A stretch of DNA of 42,238 bases, from IMG/VR virus record IMGVR_UViG_2703718851_000004, positions 1-42,238 of that record. One strand, given 5' to 3'. Below the pieces are notes generated by a model. That model was not told the DNA's origin. It worked only from the letters and a program-made list of their open reading frames with translations, and ran no database searches. Every line of letters begins with the position of its first letter. Positions within the stretch are counted from its first letter, which is position 1. The translations under genes and the position numbers were made by a program. This document shows positions 21,796 to 40,820 of the stretch, piece by piece. The DNA comes from a virus. Lineage: Duplodnaviria; Heunggongvirae; Uroviricota; Caudoviricetes.

Positions 21796-22295
21796 TGCTG
21801 CCCCCACAAACAGACTTCACGCTCAATCTCACGACGAGTCATGAGACCTTTCCATTGCTTACCGCCAGCATATGTCCAGCGACGTAGCTGATCACATGCG
21901 CCTTTGATATCGCCCTGGTTTATTTTGCGAAGAAGCGTCGATGTTCTGAAATTGCCAGCGCCCACGTTGTAAACGAACGAGTAAAGAGCGCCGCGCGTTG
22001 TTTCCGGTATATCAACTTTTATGTACGGGTTAATTTGTCTGGCGACCGTGGCAAGGTCTTTATTCAGGAGGGCTTTGCATTCTGCTTTGGTATACGTTTT
22101 ACCGAGCATGATGTCTTTTCCTGTATGCCCGTGACATACAGTCCATACACCAACAATATCTTTGTATGGTATGTAGCTGACACCTTCCAGACCATCGTTA
22201 CCACTTGGCCCAGTGATTAACACAGATGCTATAGCAATAGCCCCGCCACTTATCGCCGCTATTACGCTATTTCGTAGTGCCGGTGACATTGCCAT
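21792..22295 (-). CDS. SAR endolysin (lysozyme, phage-21 R-type)
   Basis: 167 aa; Gly/Ala-rich N-terminal signal-anchor-release segment ([13 protein letters not shown]) followed by lysozyme domain. Confidence 0.88.
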
Positions 22296-22470
22296 TCAAT
22301 CTGTCCTCGCGCTCTTTGCGCTTGTAGTACCAGTTGATGCCAAATGTGCCGACAGTACAAAGAATACCAATGATGACAGCCCAGTCATTCAGGGAGAGAA
22401 TGCCACCCATCGCAGTCAGTCCTCCGAAGCTGTAACTGAACCATTCTCTGATTTTGTCCATACGGTACAT
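22267..22470 (-). CDS. Pinholin (class II holin) with dual-start motif
   Basis: 67 aa; two hydrophobic segments and charged C terminus; Met1/Met4 dual start (MYRMDK); overlaps endolysin start. Confidence 0.75.
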
Positions 22471-22714
22471 GCTCTACCCCTTCATTGAGGGGATTTGCTC
22501 TATTTAATTAGGAATAAGGTCGATTACTGATAGAACAAATCCAGGCTACTGTGTTTAGTAATCAGATTTGTTCGTGACCGATATGCACGGGCAAAACGGC
22601 ATGAGGTTGTTAGCGCAACCTCCTGCCACCCGCTTTCACGAAGATCATGTGTAGAAGGCCGCAGCGTAACTATCACTGATGAATTCAGGATAGTCAGTGG
22701 CTACGGCTCAGTTA

Positions 22715-22790
22715 TGGTGCTGGTTAACGGACTTGAACCGCTACCCATTCGCTTACAAGGCGACTGCTCTACCATTGGAGCTAAACCAGC
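22715..22790 (-). tRNA. tRNA-Thr (anticodon UGU)
   Basis: 76-nt cloverleaf: 7-bp acceptor GCTGGTT/AACCAGC, D-stem GCTC/GAGC, anticodon loop CTTGTAA, T-loop TTCAAGT, encoded CCA; one G-A mismatch at top of anticodon stem. Confidence 0.65.
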
Positions 22791-22795
22791 ATGTT

Positions 22796-22869
22796 TGGCG
22801 GGACAGCGTGGACTCGAACCACGATAAGAAGTTAACAGCCTTCCGTAATGACCTTTATACGACTGACCC
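22796..22869 (-). tRNA. tRNA-like element with Asn-type anticodon loop (possibly degenerate)
   Basis: T-arm CGTGG-TTCGAGT-CCACG, encoded CCA, loop CTGTTAA (GUU); but T-T mismatch in acceptor stem, weak anticodon stem and 3-nt variable region. Confidence 0.35.
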
Positions 22870-22873
22870 AAAT

Positions 22874-22915
22874 AAAAAAAGCCACCGTTGCAACTTAAGA
22901 GTCACTAACGGCAGC
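22874..22915 (-). terminator. Intrinsic terminator downstream of candidate late promoter (tR'-like)
   Basis: Minus strand: imperfect stem GCTGCCGTT/AACGGTGGC followed by TTTTTTT. Confidence 0.45.
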
Positions 22916-22925
22916 TTACCTTCTA

Positions 22926-22955
22926 ATTATGGCTAAATGGATAATTGCATGTCAA
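22926..22955 (-). promoter_or_regulatory. Candidate late promoter pR' (Q-utilisation region)
   Basis: Minus strand TTGACA (22950..22955), 18-nt spacer, CATAAT (22926..22931), overlapping the 3' end of the Q-like gene. Confidence 0.45.
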
Positions 22956-23451
22956 GGCCTTTAACAGCAACATGCTTAACTTTCTCAACACGTTTACGCA
23001 TTTTGAAAGCATTTTGCATTGGCTGGTACAAAACAAATAACGACGCTTTCAGGATGTCGTCAATTTCGTTTCTACAGGTTGCCATTGAAGGTTTTCTCCA
23101 TCCCTCGCCACCACGTCCACACATCTTGCGTGGCTTTGCAGTCGCGTGATAGTAGGATGCAATTGCTCGCTTAGATGAACCATGAGCGTAGTAGCTGAGG
23201 AGGATGCCAAAGGCTTTCTTGTCAATGTACATGACGGAATCGACGACCTGAGAAATCAACATTCCATCATCATCATTACACATTGGCCTTGTCATAACTC
23301 TTCCCGGCTCTACGCTCTCCATGAACTTCGCTATTACGCTGCTCATGCGCTTTTCCAGGCGGCCTGAATAAACCCATGCGCCCCACAGTTCAAGCCAGCC
23401 ATTCAGCCACTCATGCTGTTCTTTGGTGAGGTTTAGTTCTCTTATGCCCAC
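22933..23451 (-). CDS. Late-gene antiterminator Q-like protein
   Basis: 172 aa; WGAW and CNDDD motifs resembling P22 gp23-type Q (from memory); position between nin region and lysis cassette. Confidence 0.75.
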
Positions 23452-35151: not shown

Positions 35152-35757
35152 ATGAGCAAAGAATTTTACGCAAGACTGGCAGTTATTCAGGAGAATCTGA
35201 ACGCGCCAAAAAATCAGTACAACTCATTCGGCAAATATAAATACAGAAGCTGCGAAGACATTCTTGAAGGCGTTAAGCCGCTACTGAATGGCCTGTTTTT
35301 ATCAATCAGCGATGAAGTTGTGTTGATTGGTGATCGGTATTACGTGAAAGCCACGGCAACTATTACCGATGGCGAAAACAGTCATACGGCAACCGCCCTT
35401 GCACGAGAGGAAGAAAGCAAGAAAGGAATGGATTCTGCACAAGTTACTGGAGCTACAAGCTCTTATGCACGCAAGTATTGCCTCAATGGTTTGTTCGGCA
35501 TTGATGATGCGAAAGATGCAGATACAGACGAGCATAAACATCAGCAGAACGCAGCAGCAAAGCAATCAAAACCATCACCTACACCTGAACAGGTTCTAAA
35601 AGCATTCACTGACGCAGCAATGCAAAAAAACACCGTAGAAGAGCTTAAACAGGCGTTCGCCAAAGCGTGGAAGATGCTCGAAGGCACACTTGAGCAGCAC
35701 AAAGCGCAGGAAGTTTACAACATCAGACGAGACGAATTAGAAGGAGCGGCTGCTTAA
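35152..35757 (+). CDS. erf: Erf single-strand annealing recombinase
   Basis: From MSKEFYARLAVIQENLNAPKNQYNSFGKYKYRSCEDILEGVKPLL..., matches P22 Erf from memory. Confidence 0.85.
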   Translation: MSKEFYARLAVIQENLNAPKNQYNSFGKYKYRSCEDILEGVKPLLNGLFLSISDEVVLIGDRYYVKATATITDGENSHTATALAREEESKKGMDSAQVTGATSSYARKYCLNGLFGIDDAKDADTDEHKHQQNAAAKQSKPSPTPEQVLKAFTDAAMQKNTVEELKQAFAKAWKMLEGTLEQHKAQEVYNIRRDELEGAAA

Positions 35758-36163: not shown

Positions 36164-36457
36164 ATGCCAGCGCCTCTGTATGGTGCGGATGACCCGCGCC
36201 GCTGTTCCGGCAATTCCGTATCGGAGGTGCTGGATAAATTCAGGAAAAACTACGACCGGATAATGTCGCTACCGCAGGAAACGAAAGAGGAAAAGGAATT
36301 TCGCCATTGTATATGGCTTGCAGAGAAAGAAGAACGCGAGCGAATTTACCAGACATCAATCCGACCATTCCGCAAAGCCACATATACCCACTTCCCTGAA
36401 ATTGACCCGCGCCTGCGTAATTACCGCTCACGCTATGGCGCTATCAGTAATGACTGA
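36164..36457 (+). CDS. Hypothetical protein
   Basis: 97-aa ORF in coupled early-left gene string. Confidence 0.5.
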
Positions 36458-39553: not shown

Positions 39554-39772
39554 ATGTACTTGACACTTCAGGAGTGGAACGCTCGCCAGCGACGTCCAAG
39601 AAGCCTTGAAACAGTTCGTCGATGGGTACGCGAATGCAGGATATTCCCTCCTCCGGTTAAGGATGGAAGAGAGTATCTGTTCCACGAATCAGCGGTAAAG
39701 GTTGACTTAAATCGACCAGTAACAGGTAGCCTTTTGAAGAGGATCAGAAATGGGAAGAAGGCGAAGTCATGA
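39554..39772 (+). CDS. xis: Excisionase Xis
   Basis: 72 aa MYLTLQEWNARQRRPRSLETVRRWVRECRIFPPPVKDGREYLFHESAV..., matches lambda Xis from memory; overlaps int start. Confidence 0.95.
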   Translation: MYLTLQEWNARQRRPRSLETVRRWVRECRIFPPPVKDGREYLFHESAVKVDLNRPVTGSLLKRIRNGKKAKS

Positions 39773-40820
39773 GCGCCGGGATTTACCCCCTAACCTTTAT
39801 ATAAGAAACAATGGATATTACTGCTACAGGGACCCAAGGACTGGTAAAGAGTTCGGATTAGGCAGAGACAGGAGGATAGCAATTACTGAAGCAATACAGG
39901 CAAACATTGAGTTATTTTCAGGACACAAACACAAGCCTCTGACAGCGAGAATCAACAGTGATAATTCTGTTACGTTACATTCATGGCTTGATCGCTACGA
40001 AAAAATCCTCGCCAGCAGAGGAATCAAGCAGAAGACACTCATAAATTACATGAGCAAAATTAAAGCAATAAGGAGGTGCCTGCCTGATGCTCCACTTGAA
40101 GACATCACCACAAAAGAAATTGCGGCAATGCTCAATGGATACATAGACGAGGGCAAGGCGGCGTCAGCCAAGTTAATCAGATCAACACTGAGCGATGCAT
40201 TCCGAGAGGCAATAGCTGAAGGCCATATAACAACAAACCCGGTCGCTGCCACTCGCGCAGCAAAATCAGAGGTAAGGAGATCAAGACTTACAGCTGACGA
40301 ATACCTGAAAATTTATCAAGCAGCAGAATCATCACCATGTTGGCTCAGACTTGCAATGGAACTGGCTGTTGTTACCGGGCAGCGAGTTGGTGATTTATGC
40401 GAAATGAAGTGGTCTGATATCGTAGATGGATATCTTTATGTCGAGCAAAGCAAAACAGGCGTAAAAATTGCCATCCCTACAACATTGCATGTTGATGCTC
40501 TCGGGATATCAATGAAGGAAACACTTGATAAATGCAAAGAGATTCTTGGCGGAGAAACCATAATTGCATCTACTCGTCGTGAACCGCTTTCATCCGGCAC
40601 AGTATCAAGGTATTTTATGCGCGCACGAAAAGCATCAGGTCTTTCCTTCGAAGGGGATCCGCCAACCTTTCACGAGTTGCGCAGTTTGTCTGCAAGACTC
40701 TATGAGAAGCAGATAAGCGATAAGTTTGCTCAACATCTTCTCGGGCATAAGTCGGACACCATGGCATCACAGTATCGTGATGACAGAGGCAGGGAGTGGG
40801 ACAAAATTGAAATCAAATAA
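39750..40820 (+). CDS. int: Tyrosine integrase Int
   Basis: 356 aa, near-identical to lambda Int from memory (MGRRRSHERRDLPPNLYIRNNGYYCYRDPRTGKEF...). Confidence 0.97.
   Translation: MGRRRSHERRDLPPNLYIRNNGYYCYRDPRTGKEFGLGRDRRIAITEAIQANIELFSGHKHKPLTARINSDNSVTLHSWLDRYEKILASRGIKQKTLINYMSKIKAIRRCLPDAPLEDITTKEIAAMLNGYIDEGKAASAKLIRSTLSDAFREAIAEGHITTNPVAATRAAKSEVRRSRLTADEYLKIYQAAESSPCWLRLAMELAVVTGQRVGDLCEMKWSDIVDGYLYVEQSKTGVKIAIPTTLHVDALGISMKETLDKCKEILGGETIIASTRREPLSSGTVSRYFMRARKASGLSFEGDPPTFHELRSLSARLYEKQISDKFAQHLLGHKSDTMASQYRDDRGREWDKIEIK

Follow-up and report, generated by a model that had tools for sequence, protein, structure and literature searches.

Here we describe a pair of transfer RNA (tRNA) genes in the late region of a tailed phage genome (Caudoviricetes; IMG/VR record IMGVR_UViG_2703718851_000004), whose 42,238 nucleotides (nt) were all analysed and are called the window hereafter. 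ARAGORN applied to the 42-kb window reported exactly two tRNA genes, both on the minus strand: a tRNA-Asn(GUU) of 74 nt at 22796..22869 (anticodon 22836..22834, G73 at 22799) and a tRNA-Thr(UGU) of 76 nt at 22715..22790 (anticodon 22757..22755), each with an encoded CCA. The Rfam tRNA model (RF00005, gathering score 29) recovered both with scores far above chance (Thr 61.5 bits, E=4.6e-11; Asn 42.7 bits, E=6.6e-06). On the transcribed strand tRNA-Asn comes first, followed by a 5-nt spacer, AACAU, and tRNA-Thr. An earlier note, made from the sequence alone, had seen two tRNA-shaped elements with Thr(UGU) and Asn-type anticodons and encoded CCA on the late strand between the Q and holin genes; all of this is borne out, with strand and order, which it had not spelled out, now added. 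The best explanation, which we consider probable, is that the pair is a late-leader cassette composed of a Thr gene directed against the OLD nuclease of phage P2 and a conserved Asn partner, the latter carrying a lesion in the window.

The tRNA-Thr has the acceptor stem GCUGGUU/AACCAGC and the anticodon UGU, and its threonyl-tRNA synthetase identity set, as established in E. coli (G1-C72, C2-G71, G35, U36), is complete. Its anticodon loop has 7 nt and its anticodon stem just 4 paired positions, with a G27.A43 mismatch (22764/22748). The earlier description of this gene as clean and canonical does not fully hold, given G27.A43 and C14 in place of A14.

The pair is embedded in a late operon read on the minus strand. 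Upstream lies a Q-type late antiterminator gene of 172 codons' worth of protein (172 aa; 22933..23451; Pfam PF06530 Phage_antitermQ, E=1.2e-25), whose Sf6 homologue is annotated as ‘similar to phage 21 Q’. Its 3′ end is overlapped by a late promoter, pR′ (TTGACA-18-CATAAT, 22926..22955, 11/12 consensus matches), which lines up with the annotated pR′ of Sf6 and HK75. There follows an intrinsic terminator, tR′ (22870..22917), made of a hairpin (22917..22879) and the tract UUUUUUUAUUU (22880..22870), which directly adjoins G1 of tRNA-Asn at 22869. The hairpin has a folding energy of -21.5 kcal/mol (z=-4.72), none of 200 shuffled sequences folded equally well, and the corresponding terminator is annotated tR′ in Sf6 and HK75. 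Downstream of the cassette, a conserved untranslated leader of 244 nt (22471..22714) extends to the start of the first late protein gene, a class II holin (22267..22470; Pfam PF16080, E=4.4e-21), beyond which Pfam identified lysozyme and then Rz. A sequence scan found no promoter-like site between tR′ and the tRNAs. They would therefore be produced solely from transcripts reading through tR′, by Q-dependent late expression, in keeping with the earlier proposal.

The pair corresponds to a tRNA cassette already known from the late leader of P22-like and phage-21-type lambdoid phages, a point that the earlier note had missed, together with the counter-defence role of the Thr gene. The 600 bp around it match 181 phage records at 90-99% identity, the same Asn/Thr pair occurs in at least 58 phage records, and the entire segment is present in about 260 complete E. 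coli genomes, where it is labelled ‘antiterminator Q / tRNA-Asn / tRNA-Thr’. Sf6 is annotated for pR′, qut, tR′, tRNA-Asn and tRNA-Thr, each as ‘similar to phage 21’, and the literature records the pair at the same position in Sf6, ST64T/L, PS3, phage 21 and SfI (for SfI, PMC3636060). The order Q, pR′, tR′, Asn, 5-nt spacer, Thr, leader, holin is shared by phage 21, Sf6, HK446, SfI and BTP1; our literature search found no usable expression data for BTP1. Compared with phage 21 and Sf6, the window matches at 76/76 positions in tRNA-Thr and 74/75 in tRNA-Asn, the difference being one deletion in the window. In the phage 21 record (AJ237660) a 50-nt ‘aRNA’ leader ends one base before G1 of tRNA-Asn. 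The element called aberrant by the earlier note is therefore a mutated copy within a described module and no new class of RNA.

The window tRNA-Thr is identical at 76/76 positions to the genes of phage 21 (as given in GenBank AJ237660) and HK446. P2 OLD, the effector of classical P2-lambda interference, is a Toprim tRNase (Govande et al. 2025, PMC12445682); cell death results from its cleavage of host tRNA-ThrU within a paired CNG motif, after C28 and after C40 (PMC12445682). Phage Thr(UGU) tRNAs, including tRNAThr21 of phage 21 and tRNAThr6, rescue cells from OLD; in tRNAThr21, C28U/G42A together with a shortened anticodon stem confers resistance to cutting at Site 1, and this tRNA takes the place of the destroyed host tRNA instead of acting as a decoy and needs its Thr anticodon for rescue (PMC12445682). 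Strong rescue has also been reported for HK446 Thr(UGU) (2026 preprint, bioRxiv 10.64898/2026.07.10.737580), and additional host tRNA-ThrU gives little or no protection where the phage allele protects (PMC12445682; bioRxiv 10.64898/2026.07.10.737580). The relevant positions can be read directly in the window: the host motif C28-U-G30 / C40-A-G42 is replaced by U28-C-G30 / C40-G-A42 (U28 at 22763, A42 at 22749), which destroys both CNG motifs, and G27.A43 shortens the stem. The window gene is thus the exact sequence shown to defeat the 50-year-old P2-lambda interference, and an anti-OLD tRNA can be added to the annotation of this prophage; the sole contrast with the tested genes is its native, Q-dependent late-leader context. 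The rescue experiments with the identical sequence (PMC12445682) further imply that the window tRNA decodes ACA.

The divergence of this gene from its host counterpart is concentrated in the anticodon stem. Only 2/10 anticodon-stem positions are identical to thrU, compared with 23/32 in the other stems (Fisher p=0.0076), and among relatives a compensatory G5U+C68A change occurs in the tRNA-Thr of 5 loci. Together with U28, A42 and G27.A43, this indicates that even the ‘clean’ tRNA is purposefully non-canonical. A trigger for OLD may be supplied by the phage itself. OLD is reported to fire upon compromised RecBCD (bioRxiv 10.64898/2026.07.10.737580), and the window encodes a P22-type Abc2 anti-RecBCD protein (36164..36457, plus strand; PF11043, 6e-64), a function of the kind reported, which may therefore set off OLD; an Erf recombinase gene (35152..35757, plus strand) adjoins it.

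Historically, such tRNAs have been interpreted in the literature as codon supplementation, here of an A/T-rich phage genome that makes excessive use of codons served by scarce host tRNAs, without any part in defence evasion. ACA is used 16.7 times per 1000 codons in the window and 18.5 in its late genes, a 2.3-2.6x enrichment over the published value of 7.1 per 1000 for the Shigella host (PMC3636060). With host thrU present as a single copy, the phage stands to gain from extra ACA decoding and is especially vulnerable to the loss of thrU. Rarer cassettes, described below, also add decoders of classic rare codons (Gly(UCC), Arg(UCU), Met/Ile(CAU)). Supplementation leaves the Asn(GUU) gene unexplained, however, as the host already possesses 4 copies of this gene, no more than 50% of the Asn codons in the window are AAC and Asn usage is only mildly raised; the authors of the SfI study found no bias (PMC3636060). 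Neither the failure of extra host tRNA-ThrU to match the phage allele against OLD nor the excess divergence of the Thr anticodon stem is predicted by it. We therefore regard supplementation as a doubtful explanation when taken alone, while noting that it is compatible with defence evasion and that the two are not mutually exclusive.

To place the window tRNA-Asn among its relatives, we used 147 Asn genes from IMG/VR, sampled through two independent anchors (including the Thr gene). They comprise 25 alleles, and the consensus, present in 106/147 genes and found in phage 21, Sf6 and HK446, is referred to as the family allele. In an alignment of 24 alleles, counting cells with letters, every allele but that of the window shows 100% pairing of the anticodon stem. 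Compensatory double substitutions occur at 6:67, 7:66 and 28:42; none of 500 shuffles reached the observed covariation score and controls with slid partners scored much lower, although the compensatory changes come mainly from one divergent clade, so that independent events are few. The family allele scores 55.3 bits and has a 5-bp anticodon stem, and the asparaginyl-tRNA synthetase identity set established in E. coli (G34, U35, U36, discriminator G73) is complete in it as in the window copy. These features, with the compensatory changes, speak against the earlier suggestions of an inherently non-canonical tRNA or a tRNA-derived regulatory RNA, and as far as sequence can tell the family tRNA-Asn is functional.

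Two of the oddities listed in the earlier note are traits of the family. The mismatched acceptor stem is real and amounts to a single U4.U69 (22866/22803), the pair 4:69 being U.U in 22/24 alleles; 13:22 is unpaired in 24/24. A third, much more divergent Asn type (loci L147, L148 and L151), with other D, anticodon and T arms, keeps the same acceptor stem, including U4.U69, and G73. Being unpaired family-wide, and in the case of U4.U69 in the third type as well, U4.U69 and U13.U22 are conserved features and not decay. The short variable region (4 nt) is equally real and no anomaly. The body of the tRNA resembles host tRNA-Gly(UCC), glyT, in C9, the D-stem GUAU/UUAC, the 4-nt variable loop and the 75-nt length (identity 8/8 in the D-stem, 2/2 at positions 8-9, 3/4 in the variable loop), and its variable region is thus of normal length for this body type.

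The weak anticodon stem, by contrast, is peculiar to the window, and is caused by one missing C at about 22831. Compared with phage 21, Sf6, HK446 and the nearest E. coli prophage alleles, this C is the sole difference: the family CC at positions 39-40, on the 3′ strand of the anticodon stem, is a single C at 22831 in the window (22830..22832, minus strand; blastn places the deletion at 22830 or 22831 according to strand). The gene is shortened from 75 to 74 nt, and the perfect 5-bp stem of the family, GAAGG-CUGUUAA-CCUUC, becomes GAAGG-CUGUUAA-CUUC. The family allele has a standard 5-bp stem closing a loop of 7 nt that includes U33 and a purine at position 37, an arrangement that the window tRNA lacks; its minimum free energy fold retains a cloverleaf with a predicted 4-bp stem and 8-nt loop. 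Against the RF00005 model the deletion costs 12.6 bits (55.3 for the intact Sf6/family allele, 42.7 for the window). The extra C is present in 139/139 relatives spanning the site, the deletion allele occurs in 0/147 family genes, and the sole further length variant among these differs by one base in the D-loop. Searches for exact copies of the deletion allele returned none in IMG/VR, 185,579 species-representative genomes (GTDB) or JGI metagenomes, and it was absent among INPHARED phage records and 5,426 complete E. coli genomes, where the best matches all keep the extra C. The window copy has most likely been damaged recently and, judging from its predicted structure, is probably impaired or inactivated. 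‘Decaying gene’, one of the earlier options, therefore suits this copy and not the family. The allele would also offer a ready-made, natural loss-of-function or altered-function control.

A missing base seen nowhere else in the collections scanned, in a sequence whose nearest copy differs by that one base over 261 nt, could also be a sequencing or assembly artefact, the true phage having an intact 75-nt tRNA-Asn. We consider this unlikely. The deletion is the only window-private indel in the 11,057 nt that could be compared (covered by at least 5 relatives, each at 94% identity or more), and a generally indel-prone assembly could be rejected on this ground. A CC dinucleotide is not a typical site of homopolymer error. 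Private variants of the Asn gene are common, with singleton alleles in 16/147 relatives, several of which break pairs or universal bases, making a real lesion likelier a priori. Since the window is not indel-prone and singletons are frequent, a real private mutation was judged much likelier than a sequencing error.

Host Asn(GUU) is a target of AriB, the nuclease of the PARIS system, so that the intact tRNA-Asn may be a second nuclease-resistant replacement. AriB cuts Lys(UUU), Thr(UGU) and, as a secondary yet relevant target, Asn(GUU) (Belukhina et al., PMC12409363). The cut falls between 40 and 41, beside U36AAU39; cleavage is lost with U39A and impaired with A41C and U16C (PMC12409363). Host Asn presents UAAUC|C, U16 and CNG on both strands, the family allele UAACC|U, A16 and CNG on neither strand, and the phage Thr UAAGC|G and A16. 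In full, the family allele carries A16, C39, U41 and A28-A-G30 / C40-U-U42, where the host has U16, U39, C41 and C28-G-G30 / C40-C-G42. The determinants of AriB cleavage (U16, U39 and the host base at 41) and the paired CNG of OLD are thus all missing from it, as would suit a resistant replacement. T5 provides a precedent, its variants of Lys(UUU), Thr(UGU) and Asn(GUU) neutralising PARIS AriB (PMC11464382, PMC12409363). The window pair would cover two of these three targets, and both its tRNAs lack U39 and U16 and differ at 41, the three positions that matter for AriB.

Other observations temper this parallel. T5 needs its tRNA-Lys to bypass PARIS, and tRNA-Lys(UUU) was found in 0/152 cassettes; the window tRNAs are just 57-61% identical to those of T5. 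AriB resistance here is a prediction by analogy. The anticodon stem of the Asn gene shows no significant excess of divergence from the host (3/10 versus 15/32 identical, p=0.47), the gene being diverged throughout, and a divergent Asn clade restores a paired CNG (C28-A-G30 / C40-U-G42). Host tRNA-Asn has been assayed against P2 OLD; Asn is not among the tRNAs that OLD depletes >2-fold (bioRxiv 10.64898/2026.07.10.737580). A literature search returned no published AriB or OLD resistance test of a phage-21-type tRNA-Asn. We therefore propose only tentatively that the tRNA-Asn is a cleavage-resistant replacement for host tRNA-Asn cut by AriB, and the second arm of a two-tRNA counter-defence cassette instead of a codon supplement, supplied alongside the OLD-resistant tRNA-Thr from the start of the late operon. 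Were this true, the conserved U4.U69, the glyT-like D-arm, the 4-nt variable loop and C39/U41 may serve nuclease escape, and another anti-tRNase tRNA would have gone unnoticed in phage 21, HK446 and hundreds of prophages.

That this invariant partner, which matches a proven PARIS target, has been overlooked is apparent from the records themselves. Intact tRNA-Asn(GUU) genes lie directly upstream of the tested Thr genes in HK446 (locus L125, JQ086372, 811..885) and phage 21 (locus L162, AJ237660, 917..991); neither tRNA is annotated in these two records, and the preprint calls the tRNA of HK446 ‘single’ (bioRxiv 10.64898/2026.07.10.737580), its Asn partner having escaped the counter-defence literature.

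Taken together, these results suggest the following scheme. Judging from the anatomy of the locus, transcription would start at pR′ and, without Q, stop at tR′, 3-5 nt ahead of tRNA-Asn; a Q-modified polymerase would read through tR′ into the tRNAs. Host RNase P and 3′-processing enzymes would then free both tRNAs from the 5′ end of the late transcript, so that they would be made when the ACA-rich lysis and virion genes are translated. The tRNA-Thr(UGU) would decode ACA and substitute for host tRNA-ThrU destroyed by OLD, as shown elsewhere for the identical sequence. Several points weigh against parts of this interpretation. OLD resistance was measured with plasmid-expressed or in vitro transcribed tRNAs, outside the native late-leader context. 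The window Asn remains above the Rfam threshold and keeps a cloverleaf fold in silico, the functional effect of its deletion is deduced from structure alone, and sequence by itself leaves room for a sequencing error.

The invariable position of the cassette, directly after the tR′ U-tract behind either a 21-type or a lambda-type Q module, might instead point to a structural role, the tRNA folds acting as RNase P/Z signals that detach the Q-loading leader and set the 5′ end of the late mRNA, with decoding secondary. In HK75 and CUS-3 the slot indeed holds a structured non-tRNA insert with a tRNA-like 3′ part and a canonical T-arm. Yet anticodons, synthetase identity bases and encoded CCA are conserved in the tRNAs, the Thr anticodon is required for rescue (PMC12445682), and the slot is empty in many lambdoid phages; a mainly structural or processing role therefore seems very improbable. 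As to charging, the shortened arm of the window Asn could shift the distance from anticodon to acceptor end, and aminoacylation, predicted here from identity bases, may be affected.

The frameshift-suppressor tRNAs sufD and sufJ have an 8-nt anticodon loop, like the one predicted for the window Asn. In these suppressors a nucleotide is added and the stem stays at 5 bp, whereas the window Asn loses a stem nucleotide, leaving an arm of 16 nt. A functional non-canonical 74-nt tRNA, promoting +1 frameshifting at AAY-N or gaining resistance to anticodon-stem nucleases, is hardly credible: the retained cloverleaf with its 4-bp stem and 8-nt loop, the position of the deletion at 39/40, adjacent to C40, behind which AriB and OLD (Site 2) cut, and the fact that a shorter stem is one of two OLD-resistance factors (PMC12445682) would suit it, but in known resistant tRNAs it is a 27:43 mismatch that shortens the stem while the loop keeps 7 nt, the score against the tRNA model falls by 12.6 bits with the deletion, and an allele unique to the window gives no sign of selection or spread.

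The content of the cassette varies among the 152 informative loci, of which 131 carry Asn-Thr. Eight others carry Asn, a thrU-like Thr with G42U/U43C and then Gly(UCC), a tRNA also depleted by OLD (bioRxiv 10.64898/2026.07.10.737580). In these (L009, L027, L062, L063 and four other IMG/VR loci) the second tRNA has a phage-type 5′ third and a host-thrU-like remainder; 28:42 and 27:43 are unpaired, ARAGORN misses it, and a glyT-like Gly(UCC) with A38G follows. An unmodified thrU-like arm at another locus (L089) suggests that these genes were captured from the host thrU-tyrU-glyT operon and acquired escape mutations afterwards. With its altered CNG and shortened stem, the G42U/U43C Thr appears to have reached the published two-factor solution independently.

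Rarer cassettes add Phe(GAA), Arg(UCU), Met/Ile(CAU) or Ser(GCU). The expanded versions (L128, L138, L153, L144, L156, L131 and L150) include Asn-Phe(GAA)-Thr, with or without Arg(UCU), Ser(GCU)-Thr-Arg(UCU)-Met(CAU) and Met(CAU)-Arg(UCU)-Gly(UCC)-Thr, and mostly decode A-starting or rare codons. Stx phages of the 933W type carry an ileZ-argN-argO cluster downstream of pR′, classically read as a supply of rare-codon tRNAs for late and toxin genes. There too tRNAs head a Q-dependent late transcript, and some of our sampled cassettes likewise add Arg(UCU) and Met/Ile(CAU) to Thr; the Stx cluster differs from the window in its anticodons and its Q/terminator module. One Asn-family gene (L130) has the anticodon GAU (Ile) by U35A, and its D-stem and T-stem are altered as well; it represents a case of anticodon switching or of decay.

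The inserts that replace the pair in HK75 (L002, 532..738, 207 nt) and CUS-3 (L003, 531..825, 295 nt) lie between the same U-tract and leader. They consist of a long 5′ hairpin followed by a tRNA-like multibranch ending in ACCC, with an acceptor-like UGUGGUG/CGCCACA, a D-arm-like GCUC..GAGC and a canonical T-arm, GCCGG-UUCGAUU-CCGGC. Rfam gave only a sub-threshold match to a tmRNA-like T-arm (20.2 bits, gathering score 47), and ARAGORN at relaxed settings only implausible intron-containing calls. A spurious ‘polyubiquitin-A’ open reading frame is annotated in an insert of this type in one phage record.

The leader downstream of the cassette (22471..22714) is nearly invariant between the window, Sf6, HK75 and CUS-3, despite differing cassettes and holins, and is also almost unchanged across phages with different Q types; its CUS-3 counterpart is annotated ‘boundary sequence bsq3’. 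It contains a 12-bp hairpin (about 22627..22598), in which one internal pair varies, followed by GUUUUG, and matched no Rfam family. At the other end, the 5′ base of the tR′ hairpin is the precise point where homology to phage 21 begins (L162 820..870 versus window 22918..22960), the promoter/Q-binding region upstream of it being different in the window, and similarity to HK446 runs from the U-tract onward only. The terminator and the conserved leader are thus recombination boundaries flanking the tRNA cassette.

An attP or integration-site remnant was rejected as the origin of the pair: both genes are complete with encoded CCA and lie in the late leader, about 17 kb from int/xis. The excisionase and integrase genes themselves are at the right end of the window (39554..40820, plus strand). 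The window, whose late region is mosaic, represents a temperate phage or prophage of the P22/HK620-like type. The intact Asn allele was also found on short contigs (L159 and L161) binned to Segatella copri and Collinsella metagenome-assembled genomes; these are almost certainly enterobacterial prophage DNA mis-binned in gut metagenomes.

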